This document shows, in pieces, positions 736-47,600 of a DNA stretch of 59,428 nucleotides. This DNA comes from Chrysochromulina tobinii. Lineage: Eukaryota. The position numbers were made by a program, and so were the translations under genes. The stretch spans positions 62,001-121,428 of the forward strand of contig JWZX01003409.1 in assembly GCA_001275005.1 (NCBI GenBank), read 5' to 3'. Under the pieces are notes generated by a model. It made no database searches, was not told the DNA's origin, and saw only the letters and a list, made by a program, of their open reading frames with translations. Position 1 is the first letter of the stretch. Each line of letters begins with the position of its first letter.

Positions 736-2457
736 TCACTCGAGGTGAACAGGCGTGCTGAACGTGCGGCCGGCGACGCGATCGGCGAGGCCCTCGCCCT
801 GGTAGCTCGCCATGGGGGAGAGCTCCACGATTGCATCGCCGCGGATCGCGCCGCCCGCCGCGAGGATCCGGCGCTTGCTCAGCGCCGAGACGAGCGCGCG
901 CGCCGTGTCGGGCGAGTCGCTCTTGGCGCCGGGCTCGTTTTTGACGGGCGCGAACTCTTCGTCACGCGCCACCTGCAGCGCGGCCATCTGCTTGGCAAAG
1001 GGGAACGTGTCGAAGATGAAGAGCTCGAGCTTGATGCCGTTGTTGCTCGTGGGCGTGCGCCGCGTGCCGCTCGCGTCCGTGTACGGGATCTTCTTGTGCG
1101 CGACGTGCAACGGCAGCTGGATCCCAAACGGGCCCAGACGCGCGCAGAACGACTTGAGGAAGGGCACCGAGAAGAAGTTGACGCAGATGTGCGCGTCGCC
1201 GAAGAGCAGCCGGCCGTGCGCGTCCTTCGCCTCGGCCATCTCCCTGGAGATCTCGCTGTACTCGACGACGGCGGGCCGGCCGCCCGCGAGCGCGACGACA
1301 CCTACAGGCTCGTGCGCGTCGCGCTTGGGCACCGTCTTCGAGGCACAGTCCGCGTGGCGCGCAGAGCAGAAGCCCACAAAGGTTGGGTCCGCCACGTGGC
1401 ATAGGACGTTGTCGACGCCGAATTGGAAGATCGAGGTGACGCCGCTCGCGTCGAGCTGCTCGAGGAGCCGAGCATGCATTGGGATCAGGGTCAGGGACAG
1501 GGTGCAATCAGAGGTCATTAGCATGCGAGCATGCATTGGGATCAGGGTCAGGGACGGGGTGCAATCAGAGCTCATCAGCATGCGAGCATGCATTGGGATC
1601 AGGGTCAGGGACGGGGTGCAATCAGAGCTCATCAGCATGCGAGCATGCATTGGGATCAGGGTCAGGGACGGGGTGCAATCAGAGCTCATCAGCATGCAAT
1701 CCACACCTGCTCAAGGAGCCCGGAGTCGCGCAGCGAGACGTAGCAGCCGCCATTGCCGTTGGGCGCCATCGCGAGCAGCCCCGGCGCGTCCAAGATCAGC
1801 TTGCCTTCTGGTGTCAGGCATGGCAGCGCGCCCTGAGCGAAGAAGTGCACTTGATCCTCGGGCAGCCCGAAGAAGGCATGCTGGCGGAAGAAGGCGCGCG
1901 TATCGCTGTCGGTCGCGTCCGAGGTCATGATCAAAAAGGGCAGGCGCACGTCCGCCTCCCTCTTACCGGCGTGCGCGGCCGCGAGCTGCTTCACCTTGCG
2001 GATGCGCTCCGCATGGTACTGGAAGAGGCTCTTCCCCGATGGCAGCCCGATGTCGTAGCAGCCCTTGGGTATTTTGATGCCGAGGCGCGTGCCCTGCCCG
2101 CCGGCGAGCAGCAGCGCGGCAACTTCGCTGCGCGCGATCATGCTCAGCCCACGCTCGCGCAGCGCCACCGCCTCCGCCTCGGGCAGGTCGGCGAGCCGCT
2201 CCGCCTTGAAGGGCTCCACCTGTTTGTCGGCCACCGTCTGGGCATTCTCGAGGGAGGTCGCGAGCAGCTTCGGCAGGCCCCTCGAGGTCGAGCGAGCTCA
2301 GCTGGGTCAGGAAGGCCGCGCGGCGCTCGGGCGGTGGCGTTGGCATCAACACGTGCAGCTGGCCGGCGCGCTCGAGCCTTCGCTCCATATCGCGCCACAC
2401 CTCCGGAGTGTTGGCGGCCTCAGCGGAGGTACTGCCACCGCCGGCGTTGGTGACCAT
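736..2457 (-). CDS. UAP1: UDP-N-acetylglucosamine pyrophosphorylase; exons 2457-1707 and 1455-736; one apparent +1 frameshift at about 2277
   Basis: Motifs LLAGGQGTRLG, PKG, GKSLFQ, FFAQGALP, APNGNGG, GVDN, EPVGV, VVEYSE, KLELFIFD and EEFAPVKN. A GT-AG intron at 1706-1456 restores LLEQ|LDASG. Confidence 0.93.
1456..1706 (-). mobile_element. Introner-like intron (251 nt) containing 4 x 57-bp tandem repeat
   Basis: Donor CAG|GTGTGGATTGCATGC. The intron 3' end GGCTCCTCGAGCAG copies the upstream exon end GGCTCCTTGAGCAG. The repeat units carry TGATGAGCTCTGATTGC and TGCATGC motifs shared with other introns. Confidence 0.8.
1471..1698. repeat. Tandem repeat, 4 x 57 bp
   Basis: Unit agcatgcattgggatcagggtcagggacggggtgcaatcagagctcatcagcatgcg starts at 1471, 1528, 1585 and 1642. 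There are no spacers. Confidence 0.95.
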
Positions 2458-3172
2458 GGCGCGCAGCCACCTGGGAGGTGGCAGCGCGTCGCACGTGAGC
2501 AGCCGGTACCCTTGGAGGAGGCACGGCAACATGTACGGGTGACGCGCGAGTCGGAAAATCGGAGTGCCGATGGGACACACAAGCGTAAAGAGATGACGTG
2601 GCAGAACTTCAAGTACTTCGAACCCACACACAGCAAGCACAAGCATCACTACTTGTGTTGTTTCGACTAATTAGCTTGTTTGCTTGCTTACCCACATCGA
2701 AGTTATCAAACCCAAGATCGAACCTACCTCAAGTCCTCGTCGACGACTCTCAAAACAATGCGAGGTAGCGAGGATGCGACCAAATTTGGATGCGACAAGT
2801 ATCCGGTAACGGCCATTGACACAGTGATTCAGTGTGACACACCACTGAATAAACTCCGTGGACGCGTGAGAGAGTCTGGTGATCCGTGTGTCGAAAACGT
2901 CAAGACAGAACGCGCAGTGGCAACACGCACCGTCCACCGACACCGTGAAGTCTGAACATCACACAGGTCACAGCAAGGCGCGCGCGTCCGGTCGCCCCCG
3001 GCCTCGCACACAGAAAGCGACAACCACTATACGGACACAAACTCGAAACTGTGCTGAGTGGCTCTCTGCCTTCGCAACCAACGTGCCCTGTCTAATCCTG
3101 CGCCTTGGCATGCAGCACAGGACGAGGGACTGCTGAAATCAGATGGCGACACCCGGTTGCCGTCACCCGGCC

Positions 3173-4419: not shown

Positions 4420-7382
4420 ATGCCGGCTACTTTCAAGCAAATCCAGGAGCTGCAGGCGCTGTCGGGGCGCAACCTGAAAGACTGCAAGGAGGCGCTCAAC
4501 AATCACGACTGCGACATCAAGGCCGCGTTGCACGCGTTGAACTCCGGCAGCAACCCCGATGCGGCGGCGGCGGCACCCGAGAGTGCTGAGAGTGCTCCTG
4601 CGAGTGCATCGGACAGTGCTGCAAACGAAGCGAAGGCAGCGTCAGAGAAGGCAGCCGCGGAGGCCGCTGCAGCTGAAAAGGCGGCAGCAGACGAGGCGGC
4701 CGCAGAGCAGGCAGCGGCGGAGAAGGTGGCTGCGGAGGCTGCAGAGAAGGCGGCAGCCGAGAAGGCGGAGGCGGAGAAGGCGGAGGCGGAGAAGGCGGAG
4801 GCAGAGAGGGCGGCGGCTGAGGAGGCAGCGGCCGAGGCGGCAGCGACTGAAAAAGCAGCAGCTGAGGCGGCGGCGGCCGAGAAGGCGGCGGCAGAGGCGG
4901 CTGCTGGCGAGGCGGCCGAGGCGGCGGCAAAGGCGGCGGCCGAGAAGGCGGCTGCTGAGAAGGCGGCGGCCGAGGCGGCGGCGGCCGAGGCGGCGGCGGC
5001 TGAGAAGGCGGCGGCCGAGGCGGCGGCGGCCGAGAAGGCAGCGGCTGAGGCGGCGGCGGCCGAGAAGGCGGCGGCCGAGAAGGCGGCGGCCGAGAAGGCG
5101 GCGGCTGAGAAGGCAGCGGCTGACAAGGCAGCCGAGGAGGAGCTCGCTCGTACGCTGAGTGTCGACTCACTCGCGGCGCGGGCGGCGGCTGAGAAGGTCA
5201 GACAGGATGCGGAGGCGCGTGCGGCCAAAGCGGCGGCGCGCTCGCCCCCGTCCGCCCCGTCGCCGCCGTCGGCCGCGTCGGCCGCCCCCCCTGTTGACCT
5301 CTCCGCGGAGCATGCTCGCATCCGAGGGCTGGCGGACGAGGCCGAGGCGGAGGCGGCGGCGCGCGCGGCCGCGGACGCCGCAGACGCCGCCGACGAGGCA
5401 GCTATCGGCTCATTGCTGATCCCCGCTCTGTCGACAGCCCGGCCCTCCAGCGCCCCCGCCGCTGTCGGTTCGACCCCCGCGGCAGCGGCGGCGGCGCGCT
5501 TGCCCGACGTGCCCAAGACGGCGCCCGACGTGCGCTGGCCGGCGGCGTCGCTCCTCAACCCGAGTCAGGATGCGGGCTTCGAGGTGGCCCTCAGCGATCT
5601 CGAGCCCTCCGAGATTCGTCAACTGCTCAGCCAGGATGGCGTGTCGTACACGGCGGACGACGAGGGCGATCTGACGCCCTTGGCGGTCGAGCTGCGTGCG
5701 CGCCATGCCGAGAGCGTCGCTGCGTGGCTGGCTGAGCGCCCAGGGAAGCACGCGCAGCCGCCCACGCCCTCGCTCGCCACGTCCTTGTGCCGCGTGGGCA
5801 CACCGGTCGCGCACCGCTGGACGCTCTGGCAGCGCGCCCTCGGCATCCACGTGATGCCGAGGCTCAAGCAGCAGGCGCCGCAGCTGCGCGCACTGCTCAG
5901 CACGGCGCTGCCCAATCAGGCAGAGCTCGAGGCGGACGCACAGGCGGCCCTGCTAGGCGCGCTCGGCGAGCGGGTGAGCGCGCTGCCCGACGGCGCGCTC
6001 GCGCTCCTGTGCCAGGAGTTCGCCTTCCACTTACTCGTGCTGCTCAAAAAGGCGCGCCTGCCTTATTCGGCCGATTTGGCGATCGCTCCGTTGCTCGCGC
6101 CCGTGCTGCTGCTTGCGGTGTTGCATGCGGGCGACCCGGCCGACGGCGCCCTCGGCCGCATGCAACTCGCCCTTCACCGAGCGGAGACGCTCAACGCCAT
6201 GTCGGCCGTGCTCGCCAAGTTGACCCCCGCGGTGATCGCAGGCGCTCCCTGGGGACTCGGGCCGACGGGCGCGCCCGCGACGGCGCCCAATGAGACGCTC
6301 CTGAGCCACGTGATGCTCTTCCTTCGATGGGAGTCTCCCGCGCTCGCTGAGCACCTACACGCGGCGCCTGGGATCTTGAAGGCACTCTCCCGCCTGATGC
6401 TTGGGCTGCTGGCGCCCGCGGCGGCGCCCGCGGCGGTCGTGCGCTTCATCGAGCTTGCGCTGTGGGAGTCTCCGACCGTGCCCAAAAGCCAGCCTGTCCT
6501 GCTGCTGTGCGCGCTGCTGCTGCGGGAGGAGACGCGCCTCCTCGGCGTGCCTGCGAGCAGCCTCGCGGGCACGCTCAGTGCCCAGCTGAGCGTGCCGAGC
6601 GTCGTGGAGGCCGATCGATTGCATGCTGCGGCCGCCGTGCTCAATACGACGCTACCCGTGACGCTGCGCGCCGCGCTCGACGCGGCTTGGTGTGCGGCTC
6701 GTCCGCCAGCGGCGTGCTTCGCGTGCGCTTGGCTCGAGCCGCCTGAGGTGCTCAGCAGCGGGGTGTGGGTGATCGACTTGAGATCGCATCGAGATTTTGA
6801 GGCAGCGCACTTTGCACTCACGTCGCACCTGCCGCCAGCCGAGGCGCGCGGGGCTGACGCGCGCGAGGCCGTGCGCCAGGAGCTCTTCGACATCTGTGCA
6901 GAGGGCGGCTTTACTCTCGCCTTCGTCACCGCCAACGACCCGAACGACGCCTCCGGCTCCAAGAGCGTCGTCGGCGCCGTCAAGAAGGGCAGCGCTCAGG
7001 GCAGCGCGGCTCCTGATGCGGAGCGGCTCACCTCCGAAGAGGTGCGCCTGCTCGTCCTCGAGATGAGGGATGATGGCCACTGATGGTGATTGATGATGTT
7101 CTGATGACCTCTGATGAGCTCCCTCATCAGGTGCGCATGGTCGTCCTCGAGTTTGTGCGCGCGGGCTTCCGCCACGTGGGCATCCTACGCGGTGGCCTCG
7201 CGGCGCTCTCCCCGGAGCAGCGCGTAGCCCTCGTGGCCTCCGACGTGCGCGGAGTGACGGTGGACGCGTCGAGCGAGCAGAACCCGAGTCGCCCGAGCAC
7301 TGCGGCGGCGCTGCGTAGTATGATGCCGCGGCTGCCCTCCCTTACGGCAAAGAAGGCCAAGGCGCCCATCCAAACGCTTTGA
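4420..7382 (+). CDS. TBC1D23-like protein (divergent TBC domain + rhodanese) with N-terminal EF-Ts-type UBA domain and Ala/Glu/Lys linker; exons 4420-7041, 7131-7382
   Basis: N-terminus [25 protein letters not shown] (EF-Ts N-domain-like). TBC-like [11 protein letters not shown] and [12 protein letters not shown]. Rhodanese [14 protein letters not shown] and [15 protein letters not shown]. Phase-0 intron at 7042-7130. Confidence 0.7.
4630..5140 (+). repeat. Coding low-complexity AAAEK / AAAE repeats
   Basis: Recurrent 15-nt units like gagaaggcggcggcc. Confidence 0.9.
7042..7130 (+). mobile_element. Introner-like intron (89 nt)
   Basis: Starts GTGCGCCTGCTCGTCCTCGAG, a copy of the downstream exon start GTGCGCATGGTCGTCCTCGAG (21 nt, 2 mismatches). 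Ends CTGATGACCTCTGATGAGCTCCCTCATCAG. Confidence 0.85.
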
Positions 7383-8491
7383 CAGGACGGAAAGCATTGG
7401 CGGCGCCCATCCAAACGCTTTTACGGGCCGAGCGCGAACCGGCACCGCGGAGAGCGCGGCGCTCATGTGGTCGGTCGCGTAACGGTCGAGCGCTCCTCGG
7501 CGTACGAATCGAACGGTGGGGTCGTCCATGTTGGTACATCTCGAGCGCCATGTCGAGCGCTCGCAGGCGCGCGAATTCCGAAGGGTGGGGTCGTCCATGT
7601 TGGTACATGTTCTCGGGTGAGCGAGCGTGCGGGCCTTAGTGTGGGCCTCCAAGATCGACGCGGCTGAGGAGAGGCGCACGAGTGGGGACTATCCCGGGCT
7701 CTGAGTGGACCTGTGGCGTACTAGGGTCTATTGGGTCGCTATAGGGTCGCAGTGACGCAGTCGGCCGGCGCATGGGATAGCCCGCATAAACCATAATGCC
7801 GCATGGAGGTTGGAGCCATGGTCCCATGGTCGATGGTGCATGACTGCATAGACCGAACAATCATGGACCGCCTGGCGTGTATTTCGCGGTTTCCGGTTTG
7901 TTACGACTTGTACGATATCCCGCCCGCGCAGCGGCGCGGCAGCCGGGTTTCCGCGTACCGCTATCGCGCGACATAACGCCGGTCACGCGTCTAGCGCGTG
8001 GGTCAAGGCCGAACCGCGCGGCGCGGTCCGCGGTCTGACCGCTCCGGCCCGGCCGAACCGAACCGCCTGCGGGAGCGAGCAGGCGCGCAGCCTCGCCCCC
8101 TCGCGCACGGTCCGCGATCCGCGCGCGCCGCCCGCCCGCGCCGCCCGCGCGCGAGACTGCGACGGAACTCGGAACTCGGAAGGGCGAGTGCCGCGCGCGG
8201 CGCGCGGCCGCGGGCGCGCCACGTCGGCAGCGGTATATTAGCCGGTGCGCGAGGCGAGGCGACGCGGGCCGCGTCGGCCGCCGTCGCGCCGTATAATCTA
8301 TAAAATCAAGAATGCTACTATAGCATGTATTTGTGACGATCGCTCGGGCGCCGTCCAGCGCGCGACTGGCAGATTGACGTTAGACCGAGCCGGTGCGCGG
8401 CGTCAGCACACAACAGCACGACCCGGATAACTGATAAGAAACTGAGTACTGGTAACATCCGCGACAGCGTGCACTCAAACAAAAGGTCAAA

Positions 8492-9329
8492 CTATGCCTG
8501 CAACAGCGCCGCCTGCGCCCTTGGCTGGTGCATCTCGAGCTGCATGGATGCCCCCTGCTTCTCGAGGTGATCGAGGAGCAGCGGCTCGAGGTCCGAGAGT
8601 GCGACGCCGCCGTGCGCCGCCTTCTCCTTGAGCGCCCCAAGGTTGACGTCGGGGAAGCCCGCCAACAAGAAGGCCTCCGCCGCGCGCCATTCGGCCGTGT
8701 TAAGTCGCATCGTCTTGTCGAGGTCAAAGTGCTGGATGAGCTGCAGCAGGACGATGCGTCGCGTGCCCGCGCAGCAGCAGTGCGTGCCGGTCATTCTCGC
8801 GCTTCTGCGCCTTGTGCAGGAGCCGGAGGCTCTCGAGCCAGTCCTCGCCCCGGTTGCCGATCATGCCGATCGTGTCCTTGAGCATTTCGAGGTCGCTTCC
8901 GAGCCGCTTGTTTGAGGCCTGCAGAGACGCGTTCTCCTTTTCGAAGCGCGAGGCTGCCGCCTCGAGCGACGTGCGAGCGCGTAGCTCGCGATTCACCATC
9001 CACATCGCTAGCGCGATGAGCGTGAGGAATAAAAGCCCGTAGCCGCACAGCCAATCCTGCCGCACGCCCCACCACCACAGGAAGAAGGCGATGGTGCTGA
9101 GTGACAATAGCAGCGTGTCGACCAGCGTGCCGTGGTCGAGCAGCCCTCCGCAGTTGACGAAATGAAAGACGCGCTTGAAGAAGCTGCCACATTGAGCAGC
9201 AAAGCAGCGGTCCCACAGCTCGGCTGCCAACGCACTTGAGCAAGTACACAGCCGGCGGGCGGATTCGCTCATGCATTCAGGGCAGCTCAGAGGGCCCGAG
9301 CGCGAATCATCGATTGGCACGGCGATCAT
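8492..9329 (-). CDS. Hypothetical protein with 2 TM helices, coiled coil and possible EF-hand-like motif; apparent +1 frameshift at 8759
   Basis: Two hydrophobic segments followed by heptads. Removing one base joins LLLRGHA to RIVLLQLIQHFDLDKTMRL and runs to the stop at 8492. Confidence 0.6.
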
Positions 9330-9502
9330 TTGCGCTGGCCAAGACAGAGCGCACTGAGCTGGCCTCTGGAAATGCTGGGAGTTGACCAAATTTTCCCGCT
9401 TCGTGTGAATGATAACCATTGACTGTGAAAATATGCCTTGGCTGTGAATAGATGCTCCAAAGAAGATAACCCATTTATTCTCTCTTGGACAGCAGACAGA
9501 AT

Positions 9503-11884: not shown

Positions 11885-12370
11885 GCTTTGAGTGGATTGC
11901 ATGCCATATGCGCGGGTAGGGTTTGGCAGGAAGACTGCGCCGATTATGGCACAACGTACAGTGGGTATCCGCCCAGCAATCCGAGTGAGGATCAGGATGC
12001 CTGTGGCCACTCAATTTAAGCCACAATAAACCCAACCTCGACCAGGGGGGTGCGATTTGTGTGTTGCCCCTAGAGCCTGTACTTGGTACAAGGCCATGTA
12101 GTGTACATGTGACACTACTAAAACTAGGGGGGGTACTTACCTCTTGAAATACAATCTTACAAAATAATGTTGAAATAGCAAAACCAAAGAACGCAGAAGT
12201 AGAGCTCAATACTTTGTAGCCACCCCACGGAAGGAAGCTCCTCACCTGGAGACAACCATGCCTGTGGAACACTTCAGGCTCGTTCCGGTCCTAGCGGTGT
12301 GGGAACTACAGAAAGCGGCGTTTCGAGCTCTCTCTAAAAAGCGGACGATCTTGAGTTGACGGCGAGCTGC

Positions 12371-12986
12371 ATGCCCTCCAAGCACCCGCACCTAACCCAA
12401 CAGGAACTCACCGAGTTCCGCGAGATCTTCAATCTGGTGCGCTGTCGCTGCCGCTTCGAATCGCCGCACCGCTATTGAAGGCCAGCAGGGCCTCGCACGC
12501 CGGACTCAACTGGTGCACCTCTTGCTACTGCGGGAGGCTGCTGCAAATTGCTCACTGGCGGAGTGGCGCTGCGTCCTCAGGTGGATCTGGACAAGGGTGG
12601 CACAATATCTAAGGATGAGCTAGGGCAGCTGATGAAAACCCTCGGCCTGAAGCCGACGCAGGAGGAGCTCAATGCGATGGTCGCAGAGATTGATGCGGAT
12701 GGCAGTGGCGAGATCGACTTCGATGAGTTCGTGACGGTCATGTCTCGTAAGGTGAATACCTCCTACACGCCGAAGCAGGTTAAGGCCGCCTTCAAGGTCT
12801 TTGCAAAACAGACAGATCCCAACGGCATGATTTCGATGGCCACGCTCGAGCAGGCACTCACCACCTACGGCACCGAGAAGCTCTCGTTGAAGCGACGCGC
12901 AGGAGCTGCTTTCGCAGATCGAGCCGGACGAGAACGGCATGGTCAACTACTTAGAGTTCGTGGATATGATGACGCAAGGACGATGA
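12371..12986 (+). CDS. Calmodulin-like EF-hand protein; exons 12371-12436, 12581-12986; apparent +1 frameshift at 12890
   Basis: LTQQELTEFREIFNL|VDLDKGGTISKDEL and EIDADGSGEIDFDEF. After removing one base the sequence reads LSDAQELLSQIEPDENGMVNYLEFVDMM. GT-AG intron at 12437-12580. Confidence 0.88.
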
Positions 12987-21020: not shown

Positions 21021-21161
21021 TTGTTTCGAGGGGGAGTTCTATCGCGCCGCGCACATATAGACTTCCGGTCGCCTCCCCGAGCGCGGCGTCGTTCCCAGAG
21101 GAAAGCACTGTGCGTGTCCCATCACCTTTTTGACGTATGCTCGCGACGGCGCTCGATCGCA

Positions 21162-23351
21162 ATGCGAGCCGACCGGCGGCGCTCGTGGCGGCTTTCATCG
21201 CTCGAACTGTGCATTCTCTTGTGCATCGTTGTGCGACTCACACTTCTTTTGGTTGACAAAGGGGGCACTGGACTTCGAGTCATCCAAGCAGACTCCGTAG
21301 TCGAGTCGCGGAATGCACCGCGAGAGCTGTCTGTCAATGAGGCCATACGTCCAGCTCTGCCATCACTGTTGCCGCCTCCGCCGCCACCATCGCCCGAATC
21401 GAGCCCTGCCGTTATGCTCCTCGCAACCAGTCACGTGGCCAACACCATGGACCGTCGAGCACATCAGGCAGGTCCAGATGATGGTGCAACGGGGCCGCGT
21501 GAGCGTGAGCGAGAGGTGGGCACACTTGCTGGGTCGGAGCATGAGTACCGGAGCTGCTGTGCTCGCGCTTGGCGTGATCCATCAAGAAATGCGGCCATCG
21601 AGTTTTGCGACCAGGAAACGGACGCCACCGGCGATCGAGCAACGTCACAGCTCACGTGCTTCAGTGCTCCTTCCCTCAAGGCAACAGGCCACAGCTCTTC
21701 CTCGACCCCTGCCTGGTACTGTGACGCGCGACGTCTCGTGGTGAACACCAGCGCCGTGTCCATCGGCTCTGATGACCTCACCATCCCGACGCCCTCACAA
21801 AAGGGCCTCTGGCAGCGGCGCGCGCTGCTGCTCGACTGCCCGTTGCGTACGAGCGCGCTTAGCGAGCCGAGGCGCTTCGGGATGCTCCTGCGCCAACTGC
21901 TGCCCGTGCCGCTCGCGGAGCTCAGGGCCTCGTCTGTGGGGCGCGACGTGCTGGCGGGCGTGCTGGCGCGCCTCGGAACCGATGCGCACGGCGGCCAGGA
22001 CGAGGACAGTGAGGACGAGCCGACGATTGTCTTCGTGGCGCGCTACTCGGTCAAAAACTTCTTTCTGGCCCATTACGATCTTCTGCAGGTGCGTTGATTG
22101 CCACTGATGACCTGCCTTGCATGCAAGTGCTCATTCTGGCCCATTACGATCTTCTGCAGGTGCGTTGATTGCCACTGATGACCTGCCTTGCATGCAAGTG
22201 CTCATCGCCGCGCGTCCGACTCCCTCGAGCCTCTTCATCACGATCTTCTGCAGGTGGCGTCGATTGTTCTGCACGCACTCGGGCCGGAGCCGCGAGCGCG
22301 CACGCGCCTCGTCTTCATCCCTCCCGACAAGGCCAACCACGGCTGGTGGGGCCCGCAGAGGCTGCTCTGGGCGAGCTTCAGCGAGATTCCACCAGTCTCG
22401 TATGTGGAATGGCTTGCTGAGGAAAGGGCCCTGAGCGGCGCGGCAGGCGGCGGCGCGGGAGGCGGCGGCGCGGCGTTGAGTCATCGATCCGGAGCGCCGC
22501 AGACGCTGCTGCCGGTCCGCCGCGCAATCTTTGCCCTATCAGGCCTTCATTCCGTCTATGGTCGCGGATCGATCGGGCGTGCACTCGAAGGGGTCTGTGC
22601 GCCGTGCGCGGCAGCGGACGGCGCGACGAAGCGCCTCACGCGCGTCTCGGCGTTCTACCGGCTTTTCATCCAAGCGGTGCTGCACCGGACGGGCCTCTTC
22701 CAGCTGCCAGCGCCGCCGGCGCCGCTCGCCGCCACGGCTGCCGACGGCGGCGGTGGGAGAGACGCCCGAGACGACGCGTGGCTCGAAGGCGGGCTGTTGC
22801 GTGGCGTGTGGATCTCTCGGGGGAAGGGGCTCGGGCACGGGTACGGCAAGACTGTCGGCCGCCGGTGCCTCAACGAGCCCGAGGTGCTGCAGGCGCTCAA
22901 GAGCGCAGCCGTGGGACTCGCCCTCACGCCGCTCGAGCTGGCTGACGTGCCTTTCGCCGAGCAGCTGCAGCACTTTCGGCGAGCGGCGGTGGTGACCGGC
23001 ATGCACGGCGCCGGCTACGCGAACATCATCTTCCTCGCGCCGCGGGCGGTGGTCGCCGAGCTGTGCCCGCTGGGCTACTGCACCAAGTCGTACGAGCGCA
23101 TGTCCGCGCGCCTCGACCTCATCTACATGCGTTGGACCAACACGATCGCCGAGAACGCGAAACCAGGCTACGACACGGTCGTCGACGTGGGACAGTTCAC
23201 CAAGCTGATGCAACAAGCGGTGAGTGCGTTTCGGAGTGAGTCGCCTTCAGTAGCGTCGGACGAAGAACGCGGCGGCGCTGGGCACGTCGAGAAGGAGGAG
23301 GAGGAGGAGGAGGCAGAGACGACGTTCCTGATCGGATCGGATGATGACTAG
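21162..23351 (+). CDS. Glycosyltransferase family 61 (type II membrane); exons 21162-22088, 22254-23351
   Basis: N-terminal TM helix. RRCLNEPEV and PFAEQLQHFRRAAVVTGMHGAGYANIIFL..VVAELCP match the GT61 signature. Phase-0 intron. Confidence 0.85.
22089..22253 (+). mobile_element. Introner-like intron (165 nt) with 71-bp tandem duplication of the exon/intron junction
   Basis: GTGCGTTGATTGCCACTGATGACCTGCCTTGCATGCAAGTGCTCA occurs twice. The 3' end CATCACGATCTTCTGCAG copies the exon end CATTACGATCTTCTGCAG. Confidence 0.88.
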
Positions 23352-23641
23352 TGAACACACGCTCTCAGTTAACCGGCTCACAAGTCGATATTTGAGATTT
23401 GTGAAGAATCTTAATAAAGTGTGAAAACAACAAAACACGCACGCGCTCGGCCCGCCGGCACACCGCGCCTCCCGGCGCGGCTCGCGCGGCGGCCTCGGAG
23501 CGCGTCCCCATGCGCGGAGCATGCATGAAAGATGAATGCGGCAAGCACTCATGCTCACCCCATCCACCGCACCGAGCCACCGACTCGCCGGGCCGTGTGC
23601 TTGTCCGATCACAGTCAGACGTCGGGTCAGTCATAGGTCAG

Positions 23642-24843: not shown

Positions 24844-25018
24844 GCCCAGCAGATGTAACAGAAAACCCCTCATAACTTTCAAAGTGGTGTCGCCAATTGC
24901 CAAAATAGGCAGGCGATCACTCTGCCGTCCAGAGAACAAAATCGCGAGCACCCGACGGCCAAAATCCAGACCAACGCACTCCAATGGTGCGTCCTCCTCA
25001 GCGTATCGCCACCGCCAG

Positions 25019-26668: not shown

Positions 26669-26931
26669 GGGCGTGAGGCCGACGGGAACCGACAGCTTGG
26701 CCGTTGTATGTAGTCGTTGGGTGCGTGTCGCAGTCCGGGGCGGTTGGGCCGTCTGCCCGTCTCCTTTATTCGCCCGTGGGGGCGTCGTCGTTCGTTATGT
26801 TCGTTTTGGCGAGAAGCAGAGCTTCCGGGGGCATGTAGAACGGTTAAAGTGATGAATGAGGTTTTTTGAGCCGACTCTTAACAGCCAGTTCACACTTCCA
26901 CTTTCCCAGAACCTACCTGTCGACGGCGCCC

Positions 26932-29035
26932 ATGCCTGAGAAGCAACTCGAGAAGCCTCTTCCTGACAGCAGTATCAGCAGCGACGAAAGTGTCAACGCG
27001 GTTCGCTCGCCCCAAAGGCGAGCCGTGGGAGCCGAGACAGCCGGTGACACTGTGACCGGGCTCGAGGACCTGACGCCTGCTGAGCTGGAAAGTGTTTACG
27101 TCGTTCAGGCGGACGCCGAAAATGATGCGCACGTTACCGGCGCGATGGAGGAGCCGCCTCCGGGCATCGTTATCTCGTACATGCTGCAGGAGGAGATCCG
27201 TGAGTCGGAGCTGCTCGATGACAAAGATCTCAACGAGGTGGACAGGCTCACCTCGTTGATTGATGAAGAGTTACACGATGAGCCCGTCGAAGCTATCACA
27301 CTCGAGGAAGCTTCGCAGGTTGACAAGCAGATCATCGAGGAGAAGCTTGAGCAGATGATCGAGCTGTACGACAACAAGGAGCTCATGGGGTCCATGCTCG
27401 AGTCCACGCTGCAGCCTGAGGATGCTATCCCGTACACGCTCGACGAGCTCACGGTGAAAGACCCTGCAGTTGCAGAAAGCCTGCCGCCCGCGGTTGCTGC
27501 GGCAGTCTACGAAAAGTACGGCTGCCTTCCGATCGCCGCCGGTGGACCCTTGGCGATCAGAGAGCTCGCTCAATCGTACATCGCATCGTCCGACATCGAC
27601 GACTCGTTTTACATCATGGACCTCGGCAACGTCCAGCGCTTGTACGACTCGTGGCACACGGCGATGCCACGCGTCACGCCATTCTACGCGATGAAGTGCT
27701 CGCCGATGCCCGCCCTGATCGACGTCCTTGCGGTGAACGGCTGCGGCTTTGATTGTGCCTCGGCGGCTGAGATCCAGCTCGCGCTCGACGCCGGCGTCTC
27801 GCCCGACCGCATCATCTTCGCGCACCCGGCCAAGCGGCCGTTTGACATCCGTTTCGCGGCGTCCAAGGGCGTGTGCATGACCACGTTCGACTCCATCGTT
27901 GAGCTCGACAAGATTGCCAAGTGGCACCCGAACGCGCAGTGCGTCCTCCGCATCCGTGCCGATGACCCGCTCCGCGCTGCATGCAAGTGCTCACCACGAC
28001 GCCCCCTCCTCTCCCCACAGGTGCGTCCTGCGCATCCGCGCCGATGACCCCGAGGCTGGCATCTCGTTTGGCATCAAGTACGGTGCGAACCTCGACGAGT
28101 ACGAGACGCTCATCTCCCACGCGAAAGACATCGGCCTCGACATGATCGGAGTTTCGTTCCACGTCGGCTCGCTTGCCAAGTCTGGCAAGGCCTTCTACCG
28201 CGCCATCGAGTGCGCGCGCAAGGCCTTCGACGTTGGCACCGCCTGCGGTTTCCACTTTTCGCTCCTCGACATCGGCGGCGGCTTCACGGGGCGCTTCAAC
28301 TCGTTTGGAATCGTCCAGTCGATGGTCGGCGAGATCCCGGCCTACATCAACGAGGCGCTCGAGAAATTCTTCGGCGCGGACACGCCCTTCGGCGACCTGA
28401 GGGTCATCGCTGAGCCCGGCCGCTTCTTCGCCGAAGCGTCGATGCATCTTGCCTGCCACGTGCACTCCGTGCGCAACCGCGTCGATCGAGCCTCGGCCGA
28501 CGACCCCGAAACGCTCGTCCCGACGTGTGACTACCTCATCTCCGACGGCCTGTACGGCTCGTTCAACTGCGTCGTCTACGATGGGGCAAAGCCCCGAGCT
28601 TGGCTCCTCCCGGGGCCCAACCTGCCCCCGATGGACACCGAGCTCAAGCGCTCCACAGGTCAGTACCACTGATTATCACTGATCACCACATGCGACTCGA
28701 TGGGCTGCGTCTTCACTCTGATTGCCATTGATTGCCATTGATTTCCTCCCTCATCACTGATTGCCTCCCTCATCACAGTCTTCGGCCCCACATGCGACTC
28801 GATGGACTGCGTCTTCAAGGACGTCATGCTGCCCCAGCTGCGCGTGGGCGACTGGCTCCTCTTTCCGCACTTTGGAGCGTACACCCTCGCCGGTGCCACC
28901 AACTTCAACGGCATCCAAAATGCCAACCCGAGAATCTTTTACGTCTGCTCGCAGTCTTCGGTTGACCAGGAAAACGCGGTGGTCATGTGGGCGTGCGAGA
29001 TGGAGAAGGCGCCCTCCTCGATCGTCGCCACGTAA
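26932..29035 (+). CDS. ODC: Ornithine decarboxylase (fold III PLP); exons 26932-27938, 28021-28658, 28779-29035
   Basis: PFYAMKC (PLP lysine), GFDCAS, VLRIRADD, VSFHVGS, LLDIGGGF, IAEPGRFF, DGLYGSFNC, FGPTCDSMD and GAYT. Confidence 0.93.
27939..28020 (+). mobile_element. Introner-like intron (82 nt)
   Basis: The first 30 nt copy the next exon start (2 synonymous-position mismatches), followed by TGCATGCAAGTGCTCACCAC...CCCCACAG. Confidence 0.88.
28659..28778 (+). mobile_element. Introner-like intron (120 nt) with internal 30-nt copy of downstream exon
   Basis: 28696-28725 matches exon 28788-28817 (1 mismatch). It carries iterated CTGATTGCC and CCTCCCTCATCAC modules. Confidence 0.85.
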
Positions 29036-29380
29036 AAATTTTTCGCTCGCGTGCATTCAGGTGAACGCGCGGATCTCTAGCAACCGGGAAAAACTGGCCC
29101 ATCCCTACTTTTTCCCGGTTGCTAAACAGATCCTAGATGCTAGATCTCGCGGTTGTTCATCGTTGGTCGTTGAGGAGCACAACCTCACGTCTGAGAAGAG
29201 AGAAGTACATTCAAGAAACTACAGTTTGGGCCTGACTCGACGTGTGTGCTTGTGTGTTAAGCGACCCGGATCCGTGAAACGGGAGCGCTTCACAGAAGGT
29301 CCAGAGCTGCAGTCCAGACGCTCAGTCCATCGCGGCTGTCAGGAAGTGACGAAACTGACTGACTGACTGTCGAAGCATAA

Positions 29381-30781
29381 TTGGCGTCCGTCTGGCATCA
29401 AACGCGTCGGCTCGCTCGCCGCATTTCGCGCGTTCACACCGGCTCGCGTGCGAGCAGCACTGCCATCTCCGCCGATCTCGATGAGGCCGCGCGGCTGATA
29501 TCGCTCGAGGAGGCGCACGGCGCGTTCAACTACGCGCCGCTGCCAGTTGTGCTTGAGCGCGGCCTGGGCGTGCACGTCTGGGACATCTCCGGGCGCCGCT
29601 ATCTCGACTTCCTCTCAGCATACTCGGCTGTCAACCAAGGCCATTCGCACCCCAAGATCCTTGACGCCTTGCAGCGGCAGGCGGCCAAGCTGACGCTCAC
29701 ATCGCGTGCCTTCCACAACAACGTGCTTGGCGAGTACGAGCGTTTCGTGACCGAGTATTTTGGCTACGACCGCGTGCTCCCGATGAATACCGGTGTCGAG
29801 GGCGGCGAGACCGCGCTCAAGCTCGCGCGCCGCTGGGGCTACGACGTCAAGGGCATCGCCAAGGACGAGGCTCTGGTACTCTTCTGCACCCACAACTTTT
29901 GGGGGCGCACGATCTCTGCGTGCTCGTCGTCGTCCGACCCGAGCTGCCGTGCCGGCTTCGGCCCCTACCTACCCGGCGTCCCCTTGGTGCCGTACAATGA
30001 CCTTGCGGCGCTCGAGGCCGCCTTCGCCCAGGACGGGGCGCGCATCGCTGGCTTTATGCTCGAGCCGATCCAGGTGCGTTGATTGCCAATGATGACCTGC
30101 CTTGCATGCAAGTGCTCACCACAGCGCATTGGACTCCCTCGAGCCATCCAGGGCGAGGCGGGCGTGGTGGTGCCTCACGAGGGCTACCTCCGAGGCGTGC
30201 GCGAGCTGTGCACGCGCTACAACGTGCTGATGATCGCCGACGAGGTGCAGACGGGGCTGTGCCGCACGGGCAAGATGCTCGCCTGTGACCACGAGCACGT
30301 GAAGCCGGACCTCCTCATCCTCGGCAAGGCGCTCTCGGGTGGCGTGTATCCAGTGAGCGCAGTGCTCTCGAGCGACGAGGTGATGCTCACGCTCCGCCCG
30401 GGTGAGCACGGTTCCACGTTTGGTGGCAACCCTCTCGGGTGCGCCGTGGCCATGGCGGCGCTCGAGGTGCTACGCGAGGAGCGGCTCGCCGAGAACGCGG
30501 CCCTCATGGGGGAGAGGCTGCGCGCGGGGCTCGCGGCGATCGGGAGCGATGCGGTCACAACGGTGCGCGGCCGGGGGCTGCTCAACGCGATCGTGATTCG
30601 ACCAGAGGGCGAGAAGCGGAATGCGGGCGCGCTCTGCTATGCGCTCAAGGACGTGGGGCTTCTTGCCAAGCCCACGCACGAGCACATCATCCGACTGGCG
30701 CCGCCGCTCATCATCACGGGCGCGCAGATCGACGAGGCCGTCGAGATTATCGCCAAGGAGACGCGCCGCATGTTTGGATGA
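29381..30781 (+). CDS. OAT: Ornithine aminotransferase (class III), mitochondrial-type leader; exons 29381-30073, 30152-30781
   Basis: [81 protein letters not shown] and [10 protein letters not shown]. Confidence 0.95.
30074..30151 (+). mobile_element. Introner-like intron (78 nt)
   Basis: The first 45 nt match the GT61 intron with one mismatch. The end CTCGAGCCATCCAG resembles the exon end CTCGAGCCGATCCAG. Confidence 0.9.
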
Positions 30782-31392
30782 ATCGGAAGCGTGGGAAGAG
30801 GAGTGGGAGAGTCTTGTTCGGTGGTCGAGAGAACCGCGGCGGAATTCAGACACGCAATCTGCTTCACGTTAAAAAAAACGCGGGGGGCGTCAGGTGGGCT
30901 TCAGACCTCAGCGTAGAGGCTGACTTTAAAGGCCGGACAGGTTAAACGAAGGTGTCTCACGACTCACCTGTGGCTGCGTGCTGCTGAGCGAGCGAGTACT
31001 CAGTACTTGTGTTGACCGAGGGGAGCGGAGCCGCCCTTGAAGAGCGCGGGGGGACCGACGACCGCGACGAAACTGACTGGCTGACTGACGTGTGGGAATT
31101 CGCAATTCGGTGATCGCATCTCAAAGTCCACGAATCGACGGAGCGCCGGCCGCGCCCCACTCCTTGAGGGTGGGCTCGCGGAGCACCGGTTGCTCTAACT
31201 CTCACCGCTTAAGCTCCTGAGTTTCCAAGAGATTTGGTTGCAGTTCTTCTCTGTGTCTCGTTTCACTGTTAACAAGTAAGCCCAAAGTCCACATCGCTCT
31301 CCCGCGTCAACACACCACGCCCATTGCCGGGCGGTCTATAGTGGTAGGTGGGTACTGGAGAGGAGCGGCGGCGCGTCGCCCAGCACGTCCCC

Positions 31393-34354
31393 ATGCTCCT
31401 GCTCTTTGGCTTTGTCGCAGCCATCTCGAGCTTCACGCACATCGCACGCCTCACGCCGGCTACGTGCAGTGGTCGCGGCGCTCCGCAGAGGCGTGCAACG
31501 ACCGGCGTGGCGGCGAGACTGAACGCAGGCGACGACACTGCGCCTGGCTTGTCAATATCTGGCGCCTTCGATTCGGGCAACATTAAGCTCGTGGAGGTGC
31601 AGGGGCGTGAGGCTGTTCGTCTGCGCATCATGTACGACCCTCGCACGGAGCTCGAGGGGTGCAACCACATGCAGTGGTTCGCCTTCCGCTCGACGGTGCT
31701 CCACCCTTATGCGGCCGCCGACGCGTGGTCGACGACTTACGAGATCGTCAACGCTGGCCTGTGCTCCTACATGAAAGGATGGGACGGGCTCGAGGTCTGC
31801 GTTTCGCACGACCTCCAGACCTGGCGGCGCGTGCCGTCGACGCGGTACGATGCGCCGAGCGGCACGCTCCGCTGGAGCTGGATGCACAATGCCGCGCAGC
31901 CGACGACGTTCTTCGCGTACTTTGAGCCGTACCCGTACGATCGGCAGCTGGCGTTGGTGATGCGGTGCGCGTCCGCGACGGCGCCCGGCCTCGAGGTGAG
32001 CTCGCTCGGCCAGAGCCTTGCATGCATGTGCTCACCACGGCGCCATGCCTTCCCCACAGGTGAGCTCGCTCGGCCAGAGCCTCGGCGGACGCGAGATCGA
32101 CGTGATCACGGTCGGCACTGGCCCGTTGCATGCGTGGATCATCCATCGGCAGCACCCGGGGGAGCCGCAGGCGGCCTTTTTCGCCGAGGGGCTGCTGGCG
32201 CGCCTTCTCGGGCTCGAGCGGCAGGGTTCCATCGACGGCCTCACCGCGCAGATGCTCGAGGCCTTCACGTGGCACGTCGTCCCATCGATGAATCCGGATG
32301 GCGGTAGCGCCGGCCACCTGCGCACCAACCTCGCCGGCGCCAACCTGAATCGTGAGTGGGCTCCTACAGGCAGTTACGAGGCGCCGTCCCTCGAGCGCTC
32401 GCCCGAGGTCTACCACGTGCTTCGAGCCATGCAGAGGACAGGCGTCGACTTTTTCTGCGACGTGCACGGCGACGAGGGCCTTCCGTTTTGCTTCTGCGCG
32501 GGCAATGAGGGCACGCCCAACTGGGGGCCGCGGCTGCGCGCGCTGCACGGCGCCTTTGTGGGCGCGTATGCGCGCGCCAACCCGGACATGCAAGCTCGGT
32601 TTGGGTACGAGCCCGACTCTCCTGGAGGAGCGAACCCGGCCGTTGGTGGGAATCAGGTCGGCATGCGCTTTGACTGCCTCGCTGTCACGTTGGAGATGCC
32701 GTTCAAGGACAATGCGGCCAATGCGGCCGCACGCCGCAGCGGCAAGGCATTCGACGGGCACCGATGCGCGATGCTCGGCGCCTCTCTTGTCGACGCGCTC
32801 GCCCACGTGCACACGGCTCTGCGCGGAGTGCCCGTGCCGCGCTTCGAGCTGCCAGACGATGCGTACGTGCGCCCGACTGAAGACGTGAATGAGATTCGGG
32901 CCTTCCTCGACGCTCAGGCGCGCGCAGGTGAGCAGGCGGCACGCGGCAGTGCGGCAGCGCCCGCGGCAGCGCGTGAGACGGCCAGTGCGGGGATGGCGTG
33001 GGCGTCGACGGCTCCTGTTGAAGCGGCGCCCGCGGCGGCGCCCGTGGCGACGGTTCCAATGCAGTCGGGCTTTGGAGCCGCCGCTCTGGCAAAGGCGGTG
33101 GAGGCGGCAGTGGCGCCGGCGGCGGTGGCGACTGGCGCGTCCGCGCAGCCCGAGGCGCCGCCAGGTGTGGCGGCGCCCCGGGTCTCCCTTGGAGATGGCG
33201 AGGAATCCTCCAAGGAGGATGCGACGGGGCGGCCGGTGGTGGAGGCGGCGGAGAGAGAGGAAGGCACCGTTCAACGCGCAGTCAATCCCGCGGGCCAGCC
33301 CGCGGTCACGCCCGCGGTCAGTCCCTATCCCGCGATGTCGTCGACCACGATGAGCAGGGACGGGCAAGGCGAGGGGGCGGGCGGGGGCGCGCAAGGGAAT
33401 GAAACCACCATCCTGTGGTCGAACAACGATATGAAGGGGACGCTCTGGACGAGCGCCGAGCAGCGCGAGCAGTGGTATGACCGCTCCAAGGCGTACTGGG
33501 AATGGGATGGGTTGCATGGGAAGGGCAAGACCAACGACGGTGTGATGAGCGGCATTGGGCCTCTGCACGACGCTGACATTGCGGACTCGCTCGCTTTCAT
33601 CACGGGCGGCCTGCAACCCATCTGGCCAGCGCCCTTCTTCTTCCCAGACGCGCGCGCTCTCGATGTAGGTGCCGGGATAGGGCGTGTGGCGGGCGCGCTG
33701 CTGCTCGACCTCTGCGGCGAGGTCGACCTGGTCGATGGCTCCGCGTCCCATCTTCATGAGGCCCGCGCGGCGCTGGGCGAGCCGCTGGGCGAGCCGTTGG
33801 CGCCGGGGACGTCCGAGCCGATCGGAGGCAGGCGCGAGACGATCGGTCGCGGGCGGGTGGGCCGTTATCTGTGCTCGGACCTGCAGGACTTTGTGCCGCT
33901 CGCGTCGCACCCTTACGACCTGATCTGGATCCAATGGACGACCATGTACTTGACCGATGCTGACCTCACGCGCCTGCTGCGCGACTGCCGTGAGGCGCTC
34001 GCGCCGGGCGGTGTGATCGTGCTCAAGGACAATGTGATCGATGAGCTCAAGGGACCGAAGGGTCTTGTGGACGGACGGTATGTCGTCGATGAGCTCGATG
34101 CGAGCGTGAGCCGCACGCGCTCGCACTTGCTTGACCTGGTGAACGAGGCAGGCCTGGCGATTGTGGCCTCGGCCACGGCCAACCTCAAGTCCGAGGAACT
34201 TGACGGCCTCCTCAAGAACAATGGATGGTCCGAGATGCACCCAGTCGCGATGCTCGCGCTTCGGTCCGCAGAGGGCCCGCAGGTTGCGAGATCCGAAGAT
34301 GGCATTGACAATGGCGACGGTGGAGGCAGTGTGTTTGGATGGGTGTTTAGGTGA
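31393..34354 (+). CDS. M14 (Nna1/CCP-type) zinc carboxypeptidase fused to an NTMT1-like alpha-N-methyltransferase; signal peptide; exons 31393-31995, 32060-34354
   Basis: Peptidase: FDSGNI, QWFAF, FAYFEPY, RQHPGE, MNPDG, RTNLAGANLNREW, DVHGDE, TLEMPF. Methyltransferase: YWE..TNDGVMSG, ALDVGAGIGRV, LQDFVP, YDLIWIQW, YLTDADL, GVIVLKDN. Confidence 0.85.
31996..32059 (+). mobile_element. Introner-like intron (64 nt)
   Basis: The first 23 nt (GTGAGCTCGCTCGGCCAGAGCCT) are identical to the next exon start, followed by TGCATGCATGTGCTCACCACGG...CCCCACAG. Confidence 0.9.
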
Positions 34355-44670: not shown

Positions 44671-47600
44671 ATGCCACCGACAGTGATCAGCCGCGCAAAG
44701 GCCAACGCGGGCAGAGGCGCTCCTGTCGAGTCCTCTTCTGCCGCCGCCATTCCCGACTCGTCGACCGACGCTCTCGAAAAGGTCCGTCAGCAAGCCCGCC
44801 GCCTCGTCGAGCAGCAGCAGCAGCTGCAATGCGCCCTGGCCTATGGCAAGCTGTGTGAGCGTCGGATCTTGCAACTGCAGCCCGACCACGCCCTACCTCT
44901 GACCGCCGAGCACATAAAGCAGCAGCAGGAGGAGCCGCGGCCAAGGCCGGGGCTCCCACCCAAGCCGCAGCCGAGCGGCGGCGGCGGCAGCGAGACAGTG
45001 CCGAGCAGCGAGCTGGACGCCATGCGCGAGCGAGCCGAGCTCGCTGAGGCGGCGTTAGCCCGCGCCAGAGGGAGACTTCCAGCCCGCCGCTCTCCGACAC
45101 GCGCCGCCAACGCGGGCGAGCCGTCCACCAGCGGCGCTGACGGCAGCAGCGGCAGCAGCGGCAGGACTGCCACCGCTGAGGATCAGCTGCAGATCGCGAG
45201 CGTCGAGGCGCTGCGCGAGGCGCTGCGCGCGGCGCGCGAGGAGACGGAACGCCAGCGCAAGGTGGCGGCCACGGCGGCGCGCGAGTCGATGAAAGCGCTC
45301 GAGGAGGCGGCGCGCACGGCGGGAATGCCCAACGGGAGCGCGCAAGTGCTACGAGCGCATGCGGCGAGCGAGCGCACCATCAACGAGCTCAAGGCACGTG
45401 TCGCCGCCGTCGAGAGTGCCGACGCGGCTCTTCGCGAGCAGCTGAGGAGCGCGCATGCGGACGCGCAGCTCGCTGCGGGAGCCCTCAAAGCCGAGCGCGA
45501 AGGGCACCAGGCGACGATGGCGAAGCTGGCGGACGCCGAGGCGGCCGCACGCGAGGCTACGAAGCAAATGGCCGCCGCGGCCAGCGCACGCACGCAGCAC
45601 GAGGTGGAGCGCGCTGCGTTGCTCGAAGCGTACGAGGAGCTCGAGGGCACGGCCCGCAGGGCTGCGAGCAAAGCCGAGCAGACGGAGAGCGCGGCAGCGG
45701 AGGCGGCGACAACGCGCGATCAGGCTGTGGTGGCGCTGAAGCGGGCGGAGGCGGCGCGCGAGGCGGCCGAGAAAGAGGCGGCCGCGCTGCGCCTCGAGAT
45801 GCAGAGTGCTCAGTACAGCGCGGCCACAGAGCTACAGAGTGCTCAGCGCTCGCTAGCCGAAGCCGTTGAGAGGGAGAGGGCGGCCGAGGCGAAGGCGAGC
45901 AAGGCGGCGGCGGCGGCAGCGGCCGTGCTGGAGGCGGCGGACAGTGCAGCGAAGGAGCGGCGCGCCCTCGAGAGCCTGCATGACGAGGCGAGCACCGCGC
46001 TCGAGACGGCGCGTGCCCAGCTCGCGCACGCGCGCAAGCAGGTTCTCGAGGCGGAGGCGGGCGCAGCTGCGGCGAAGGCGAAGGCTGAGGAGGCCATCGC
46101 CGAGGCGCAAGAGCAAGCGAATGCCGCGAAGGCGCAGGCCAAGGCGGCCATCGCCCAAGCGCGGATGGAGGCAGAGGTGGCCATCAGTGAGACGCAGGCG
46201 CAGTACAAGGCGGCGATCGCCGCCGCGCAGGCACCGACCAAGGCGGCGATTGCCGAGGCGCAGGCAGAGGCGAAGGCGGCCATGAACGAGGCGAAGGCGG
46301 AGACGATCAAGGCGCGCTCGGAGACGGCAGAGGCGGCGGCCAAAGCGAGCGCGGCGCGGGCTCAGGCGGAGTCATGGGCGCGGGCGGAGGCAAAGGCAGC
46401 GGTCGAGGCGGCGGATGCAAAGGCAAAGGCGGCTGTCGAGGCGGCGGAGGCGAAGGCGAAGGCGGCTGTCGAGGCGGCGGAGGCGAAGGCGAAGGCGGCT
46501 GTCGAGGCGGCGGAGGCAGCATCCAAGGCGACCAGCGCGCGGGCGCAGGCGGAGGCCAAGGCGGCCATCGAGGCGGCAGAGGCGGCCTCCGCGCGGGCGC
46601 AGGCCGACGCGTTGCGCAGGGCGTCCGAGGAGGCCGAGCGAGCTCTGGCGGCGCTCCGAGCCCAGCTCACTGAAGCGCACGCGCAGGCGGCGGTGGCGGC
46701 CGCGAACGCCGCCGCGAGCGAGAAACGCGCCGAGGCGGCGGAGGCGGCGGCCGTGACCGCGGGCCAGGGCGCGGCTGCCGCGGCCGCGAGCCAGAACGCG
46801 ACGGCGTCGGCGATCGCCTCGGTGGCCGAGACGGAGGCGCGGCTGCGAGCGCGCGCCGAGGCAGCGGAGGGGGCGCTCGCGGCGGCGCAGGCGGAGGCGG
46901 CGAGCGCGCGCGACGAGCAGTCGATTGAGCGCAAGGGTCTCCTCTCGGAGCTGCATGCTCTCCATTTGCAAGCCTCCAAGCTCGACGAACAGGTGCGCCT
47001 TGGGCAGCAAGCGCGGCTCGTTGAGGAACAGAAGCGCCAAGCGGTGCTCGGTGAGCGAGAGGCGGAGCAACGGCAGGCGACGCAGCTTCGTGCGCAGCTC
47101 GACGACTCTCATCGAGTGCTGATGACCAATGATGACCAATGATGACCAATGATGACCACTGATTGCTTCCCTCATCAGGTGCGCAGCTCGACGATCTGCA
47201 GCAGCAGCTCGAGGCAGCGCGCGCCGCCCATGCCGCTGAGCTCGCTGCCGTCGAGATCAAGCTGTCCGCCGAGCGTGCCGACTCGCAACGCTCAGCGATT
47301 GGCGCGGCGGCAGCGCAAGCGGCGCAGCTGCGCGCGGCGGCCGAGATGGCGGCGGCGCAGGCGTCGGAGAGGGCAGCTCGCAAGGAGCTTGATGCCGCCG
47401 CCGAGGCGCGAAAGGCCGCCGTCGAGCGCGCGCTTAGTGAAGCGAAGCGAGAGGCGGCGGAGGCTGCGGCGGCGGCAGTGCGCAAGGCAGTCTCGGACGC
47501 GGAGGTGCTCGCGCAGGCGGCCGAAGCGCGACCCTGATGACGTCTGATTGCCTCGCTCTGATGACGTCTGATTGCCCCCCTCATCAGGTGCTCGCGCAGG

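Follow-up and report, generated by a model that had tools for sequence, protein, structure and literature searches.

The origin of new introns is a long-standing question, and two kinds of described system are close to the introns reported here: introners, whose transposon-borne forms explain bursts of gain, and introns attributed to break repair, a model that has been left without an identified donor sequence. Introners are repeated short introns in unrelated genes that carry one splice site and take the other from the target-site duplication (TSD), described as 4 bp long; those of Chrysochromulina metagenome-assembled genomes (MAGs) have this 4-bp TSD and no terminal inverted repeats (TIRs) (PMC9860276, PMC12130899; here and below, statements from the literature refer to the available parts of the cited papers). 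In Daphnia pulex, introns ascribed to staggered breaks show presence/absence polymorphism, exon repeats of 4–12 bp at the far end, parallel gains, internal repeats and multi-step histories (PMC4202315), and the source of their filler was stated to be unclear (PMC4540971). Here we describe nine introns in a 59,428-nucleotide (nt) stretch of Chrysochromulina tobinii (contig JWZX01003409.1, positions 62,001 to 121,428; hereafter the window) that share traits with both systems and depart from both. Their duplications are 0–51 nt long across related loci, extending beyond those of either system. Unlike described introners, they occur in two mirror classes around one core, their copies are unevenly alike from end to end, their donors are often local, and some copies are unspliced and in frame. 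As in Daphnia, an exon repeat lies at the far end more often than in background; the filler, however, is not unrelated to other introns and is a recognisable piece of them. We conclude that a process of intron making is at work that is young and abundant, leaves long duplications of variable length and has donors that can be traced; it resembles break-repair gain fed by an introner-like core and is not of the type of miniature inverted-repeat transposable elements (MITEs).

All nine introns begin with GT and end with AG on the coding strand, and their excision restores open reading frames (ORFs) of 436–1935 codons in seven genes. Pfam profiles continue over the junctions nearly residue for residue in UDPGP (17–182 and 185–337), ornithine decarboxylase (2–104 and 108–246) and aminotransferase III (14–200 and 201–401), and the host genes belong to different Pfam families, which upholds the original prediction of nine introns in seven unrelated genes; a Pfam profile scan found no family on either exon flanking the intron at 7042. 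Two short sequences, modules A and B, recur in the inserts. Module B has five matches in the window (up to two mismatches, 0.10 expected by chance) and the 5′ word of module A has twelve (0.16 expected), and every match to either module lies inside the nine introns on the sense strand of the gene. Of the inserts said to be built from these modules, that of intron 1456 contains A-like words and GCATGC and neither module in full. The other five introns noted earlier in the window were said to lack the modules, and indeed gave no match to the two patterns in the window pattern scan. An Rfam scan of the window returned no matches, and viral contigs held no exact match to module B or module A.

The inserts fall into the two mirror classes as follows. 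In class I, the exon copy gives the GT and the insert brings a putative branch point, a pyrimidine tract and CAG; in class II, the insert brings a conserved 53-nt 5′ piece and the AG comes from the exon copy. Five plus-strand introns of the window are of class I: 7042..7130, which contains module A and opens with a 21-nt copy (7042–7062, two mismatches) of the following exon (7131–7151); 27939..28020 in the ornithine decarboxylase gene, with module B at 27978–27997 and a 30-nt duplication (27939–27968 and 28021–28050, two mismatches); 31996..32059 in an M14 carboxypeptidase gene, with module B at 32019–32038 and an exact 23-nt duplication (31996–32018 and 32060–32082); and two introns of one alanine/glutamate-rich, coiled-coil-like gene, namely 47090..47178, with a module A array and an exact 16-nt duplication (47090–47105 and 47179–47194), and 47505..47587, with module A twice and a 28-nt duplication (47505–47532 and 47588–47615, one mismatch). 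Class II is represented, also on the plus strand, by 22089..22253 in a glycosyltransferase-61 gene (18-nt duplication, 22071–22088 and 22236–22253, one mismatch) and by 30074..30151 in the ornithine aminotransferase gene, whose fixed 53-nt 5′ piece includes module B at 30103–30122 and whose 15-nt duplication spans 30059–30073 and 30138–30151. The latter duplication shows 6 exact nt in the window and 14 of 15 with a one-base insertion at 30145 that is present in DNA runs X1 and X7, so that the length of about 15 first proposed holds. Intron 1456..1706, on the minus strand of a UDPGP-family (nucleotide-sugar pyrophosphorylase) gene, carries its donor, takes its acceptor from a 14-nt exon copy (1456–1469 and 1707–1720, one mismatch) and contains four A-like units of ~57 nt. 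These seven in-register duplications and that of intron 30074 agree with the predicted geometry of exon-X-insert-X-exon in eight introns. The ninth, the plus-strand module-A intron 28659..28778, repeats 5 nt at its ends, and a 30-nt copy of the following exon lies displaced within it (28686–28715 and 28788–28817, one mismatch).

The same pattern was found in at least 127 loci (578 kb) with an exact module-B match, a biased sample from several strains in which B sites were counted as distinct by their flanks and a few represent one site in two assemblies. Among the matches listed, 196 module-B sites included 141 with a flanking direct repeat (score of at least 12, 12–46 nt); such repeats occurred in 1.9% of 1000 chimeric and 7.2% of 1500 random controls. 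For module A, 43 of 82 sites were duplicated, against 2.4% in controls; duplications are thus far above controls. Similar introns therefore lie at many unrelated loci (196 anchored sites for B and 82 for A, in at least 127 loci plus the window), and the observation is confirmed as real and general beyond the window. Among 129 B sites of this set at a score of at least 14, GT..AG stood in the register of the duplication at 80, against 4–17 in six shifted registers; only GC..AG was found at 21, and neither at 28. Several module introns (L035, L029, L040, L044, L058, L061) apparently use GC donors, some of the 21 being attributable to chance.

Duplication lengths form a continuum that runs from 0 to 51 nt overall, and no TIRs were found at the ends of the nine introns, where the best inverted match was 5–9 nt and internal. 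This supports the original argument against a DNA transposon with a fixed TSD. End-to-end likeness is uneven: class II copies have 53 nt in common, and in some subfamilies the whole intron is shared, while class I copies share only 25–45 of 64–95 nt. The two copies of a duplication differ by 4.3% (150 of 3482 nt). Derivation of the intronic copy from another allele was considered and rejected; mismatches at codon positions 1, 2 and 3 numbered 30, 19 and 43, and 42 of 92 were synonymous (25% expected at random), a pattern that needs no more than ordinary drift if the exon copy is under constraint, and in L048 both copies bear that locus's own letters.

Whether the junctions are spliced had been set beforehand as a refuting test. 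RNA contigs were aligned to window positions 21000–33000 and 27400–30900, which cover five of the nine introns, and they cross three of the five junctions (27939, 28659 and 30074; runs X13, X15 and X16). Intron 27939 appears as an 82-nt skip in these RNA runs and is not skipped in DNA run X7, the X16 contig being otherwise identical; intron 30074 appears as a GT..AG skip of 78 nt in the same RNA runs, again absent from X7; and loose contig ends from X13, X15 and X16 read over the junction of intron 28659. For the last intron, a joint in RNA run X12 was not counted as splicing evidence, its depth matching that of an intron-less paralog. No RNA joint was found for introns 22089 and 31996 among the matches listed, where cover was low. 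Read depth reached 5,000–38,000 over the modules against 65–110 alongside, a figure that is not a copy number.

Empty and filled versions of the same sites coexist in gene copies that are 85–94% identical, which answers the concern that the intron positions might be ancient. Of the three refuting conditions set beforehand (ancient positions, duplications at control level, unspliced junctions), none was borne out. In L048, which is ~94% identical to the window's decarboxylase gene, an 84-nt module-B intron is flanked by a 37-nt duplication of a stretch that is single in the window (28324..28360, plus strand). L035 (~85% identical) has module inserts that the window lacks, four of them internal and others at both ends of the contig, and only the 27939 site is common to both. 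A divergent gene copy without intron 28659 is present in DNA run X7, and probably also in X1; the X7 copy agrees with the uninterrupted proteins P0002, P0003 and P0244. Predicted proteins of other assemblies enter module-like translations at reference positions 258, 304, 341, 433, 455, 481 and 543. At position 433 one record seems of A type, whereas L048 has B, which, judged from translations, would be a possible parallel gain. A different module-B tail in P0266 enters the aminotransferase at the 30074–30151 junction, and this translation hints at a second one. KOO21555.1 (Chrysochromulina tobinii) falls into one cluster with a decarboxylase that shares 94% identity with the window's second exon. 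Recently gained spliceosomal introns are the best reading of introns of this kind.

L048 differs from window positions 27843–29030 by 0–2 nt per 50 nt around two shared introns and by up to 8 per 50 nt elsewhere, and is a mosaic of two gene types, as are P0252, P0253 and P0255 of the same two types. This mosaic may reflect intron transfer with co-conversion, ordinary recombination or an assembly chimera. In three pairs (L078 and L101, L041 and L089, L067 and L118), the same intron has a different number of module A or of whole re-duplicated units, which indicates that such arrays are still changing.

Of 118 single-B sites in the locus set, 55 were of class I, 14 of class II, 5 were cut mid-duplication and 44 were without in-register GT-AG; both splice sites came from the duplication at only 5 of the 74 GT-AG sites. 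At 32 of 35 class II sites, duplication lengths cover the range of 0–29 nt continuously; the remaining three are tandem re-duplications. The CTCAC of module B is probably the branch point: in class I its A lies upstream of the acceptor by 22–33 nt and downstream of the donor by 39 nt or more, and in no class is it closer to the acceptor than 22 nt. Introns have a length floor of 64 nt, and longer duplications go with shorter inserts (rho −0.60); these floors would correspond to spliceosomal size limits. Inserts without a splice signal go below the floor (45–63 nt), some consisting of only module B and 2–8 nt, and 10 of 13 inserts without splice sites were multiples of three (p = 0.0016) against 32 of 80 GT-AG inserts, which suggests that the underlying process has no need of splice sites and that its products are filtered by selection. 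The median duplication was 24 nt in the class without in-register splice sites, so long duplications appear intrinsic to the process. One insert without a splice signal, over an apparent stop codon in L028, seems unspliced in RNA contigs (loose ends).

Donors can be traced, and they are often local. For 115 sites with a partner on their own contig, the insert most closely related was found there in 27.5 cases, where 3.0 were expected (0 of 5000 permutations, 12 contigs), so same-contig kinship is about nine times chance; among the pairs listed, local partners were 125–7914 nt apart and on the same strand in all but two. Within the window, intron 22089 repeats intron 30074 from GT into the latter's own exon-derived duplication, of which a remnant is found at 22218–22231 (plus strand), and the donor word shared by the two occurs nowhere else in the 578 kb and the window. 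Since intron 22089 carries exon-derived letters of intron 30074, the direction of copying is evident, over 8 kb and between different genes. Distant, homology-guided events also occur, given that a 74-nt intron or its 3′ end is present on different contigs, in five loci where the target is similar to the 3′ end of that intron (by 9–16 nt in four). Microhomology at module-A junctions averaged 2.7 nt against 0.43 (15 scorable of 39, with one outlier among the 15). Neighbours were not clustered by module, with the same type in 64 of 114 against 50% expected. In related pairs, donor-exon letters past the acceptor averaged 2.9–3.1 against 2.5 nt, which is not decisive between a DNA and an RNA template. 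Patchwork inserts with displaced exon copies, as in intron 28659 and in L035, fit iterative synthesis.

The original prediction had proposed target-primed reverse transcription (TPRT) or staggered-break repair with a templated filler. We rank templated break repair above TPRT, and add to it local donors and inserts that are halves of introns. The explanation we tentatively prefer, at somewhat short of an even chance, is that staggered breaks are repaired with a switch of template to an intron that already exists, often one nearby, and that the module core promotes this. A staggered DNA break in the target exon would leave 0–51 bases duplicated on either side of a filler; repair synthesis would switch momentarily onto an existing intron and copy its branch-point core; and selection would retain those inserts that splicing removes exactly or that keep the frame. 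Module B has a palindromic front (GCATGC) that may favour copying, in which case the core would act selfishly without transposon ends, and long duplications could then allow units to re-duplicate by slippage. Intron 22089 contains an exact 71-nt internal re-duplication (22063–22133 = 22134–22204, plus strand). We know of no genome-wide self-amplifying intron family produced by the synthesis-dependent form of microhomology-mediated end joining (MMEJ) or polymerase theta repair. Such repair is alike in its templated fillers, short junction homology and staggered-break duplications (PMC2943611, PMC8355091), and is without the strong bias to one core that the window family has.

Several observations weigh against this preferred repair reading. 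Pairwise locality is significant within 1.5 kb, with p = 0.14 when the two richest loci are left out; the best match is local in about a quarter of sites only; and microhomology at class I module-B junctions is not significant (p = 0.18). Fixed ends exactly at GT and CAG are expected of excised intron RNA as well. Among isolated duplication-filler events in 499 kb, a module was present in 83 of 138 against 8% expected, and with copies anchored on the 3′ half of module B, the 5′ edge fell at its GCATGC front in 81 of 211. This filler bias and edge pile-up mean that the core is favoured beyond generic repair; plain repair predicts neither intron-like fillers nor a 5′ edge pile-up, whereas a dedicated enzyme or an RNA template does. 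The module-free events were multiples of three in 40 of 55, several being decayed modules or other short repeated units; 34 of the 55 were picked by eye, with decayed modules and low-complexity cases dropped.

We also noted duplications around other repeat units, mostly in multiples of three and without in-register GT-AG (0-based starts: L012 12895, L013 7651 and 11761, L018 494, L020 12684, L032 8164, L040 11412, L053 10427 and 18245, L057 2418). These may be further products of the same process that are read into protein.

The strongest alternative, which we nevertheless hold to be unlikely, is that TPRT by a reverse transcriptase (RT) of the long interspersed nuclear element or Penelope type, or by a repair polymerase, copies excised intron RNA. 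Class I would arise when priming at the 3′ end is followed by early drop-off, and class II when priming is internal and synthesis runs off at the 5′ GT; the second nick would set the duplication. The variable duplication length, fixed insert ends that match intron RNA ends, the excess of class I over class II (55 to 14) and the strong excess of intron-like fillers, even in unspliced inserts, are all as TPRT would have them, and local donors would suit RNA released at the gene. Fixed ends and intron bias are accounted for as well by TPRT as by break repair. The modules also lie predominantly in sense orientation (B 91 against 14, A 43 against 5; random 399 against 379), but this bias was only 11 of 13 in unspliced inserts (p = 0.058) and selection explains the rest. 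Further, no poly(A) or fixed tail was seen, many inserts are cut on both sides, and displaced exon patches would require extra template jumps. Class I fits a fixed 3′ end with 5′ truncation, of which class II is the mirror image. No RT or transposase family was found in 8 motif-selected ORFs of the loci, a weak test that covers less than 1% of the genome.

Improbable in our estimation, and below TPRT, is an HUH transposase (Replitron- or Helitron-like) that moves the core as a tiny non-autonomous element, nicking at the palindrome and leaving fuzzy ends and variable duplications. Replitron-1 of Chlamydomonas reinhardtii inserts after RG, with fuzzy right ends derived from the parent and variable duplications that include RG, and one Replitron protein was reported in C. 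tobinii (PMC10288648). Class II resembles Replitron-1 and Replitron-N1 in its fuzzy end, as traced at intron 22089, its variable duplication and its insertion after RG (PMC10288648), the last being confounded because an AG before GT is needed for splicing anyway. The piling of 5′ edges at GCATGC would also suit a nick at the palindrome, as would the continuation to GCGC in 176 of 188 copies anchored on the 5′ half of the core. However, no terminal direct repeats were seen by eye in 20–35 class II copies, class I has its fixed end on the opposite side and no RG target, and 8 sequences had no significant fold (z from −1.42 to +1.46). Described Replitron ends are ~53 bp each, and the elements measure 0.9–3.6 kb against 25–55 nt here (PMC10288648).

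A two-step origin, in which an exon stretch duplicates in tandem (the Rogers model) and filler arrives later by gene conversion from neighbouring introns, appears very unlikely. In described gains of this sort, duplicated exon provides splice sites and introns may move between related gene copies (PMC3443670); here, usually one site comes from the duplication and shared filler gives the rest. Tandem re-duplication is common at module introns (22063–22204), the L048 mosaic has blocks of identity around shared introns, and a few introns (5 of 74) take both sites from the duplication. Against it, several sites combine perfect duplications with full inserts, and a bare duplication of 12–46 nt, being below the 64-nt floor and mostly frameshifting, could not have persisted as a first stage. 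A classical MITE-type introner with TIRs and a fixed short duplication, since decayed, is the least credible origin, even though marine Chrysochromulina MAGs have 58–108-nt introner families with a TSD and no TIR, one of 618 copies (PMC9860276), and module A has an internal inverted repeat of 7–8 bp: the continuous duplication lengths largely refute it, TIRs are absent from the intron ends, and copies differing by only 4.3% are too young for such decay.

Taken further, the preferred repair reading raises a possibility that we put forward with more reserve than the repair reading itself: existing introns would give rise to new ones with no transposon involved, in that a 25-nt core at the branch point, palindromic at its front, would be actively copied, together with whatever intron flank is by chance attached, from neighbours into staggered breaks. 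This chain reaction would account for much of the intron content, perhaps half, of a cultured and sequenced alga, and would have gone unseen by introner pipelines. If true, it supplies the donor that the break-repair model has been missing, and if a chain reaction free of transposase were confirmed, it would be categorically new. Because donors are traceable, filled alleles exist beside empty ones and a cultured, sequenced species is close to the host, the mechanism is directly testable.

With regard to scale, nine introns in 59 kb would correspond to several thousand in the 59-Mb genome, an extrapolation that rests on one selected window. The C. tobin genome was described with 16,777 genes that hold about one intron each, and its main text uses "intron" once and "transpos" never (PMC4580454). 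The 2025 introner catalogue lists, in its available part, 0 families for C. tobinii and 3 for Emiliania huxleyi, with 72% of families unclassified (PMC12130899); a genome of this kind can be scored zero by introner screens that require copies to be similar from end to end and duplications to be fixed. In the part of supplementary file 1 of Gozashti 2022 available to us, the module words were not found; by description alone, class II may be kin to MAG family 5 of Chrysochromulina sp., which is ~72 nt long and TIR-less, carries its 5′ site and co-opts its 3′ site (PMC9860276). In the literature accessible to our search, which excluded subscription papers and the introner sequence repository, we found no report of the modules or of this geometry in haptophytes.

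Some minor observations were made alongside. The E. huxleyi genome paper reportedly mentions intron repeats of 10–11 bp. The 57-nt units of intron 1456 (1456–1706) hold TCAGGG and ACAGGG words, which resemble a telomere repeat, and telomere-like words occur in 15 of 362 clusters. At 30624–31425, an intergenic part of the window, summed DNA depth was 5,500–9,500 against ~65 in X1, marking an abundant repeat that is unrelated to modules A and B and has no Rfam match. For the ornithine decarboxylase gene (26931–29035), the nearest named homolog beyond the Chrysochromulina cluster is from a pelagophyte (70%, P0005), above green algal ones, and this similarity suggests possible lateral transfer. 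Positions 12370–12985 contain what by eye is a calmodulin-like EF-hand gene with an apparent module-free intron at ~12439–12580 and a possible frameshift at ~12890.

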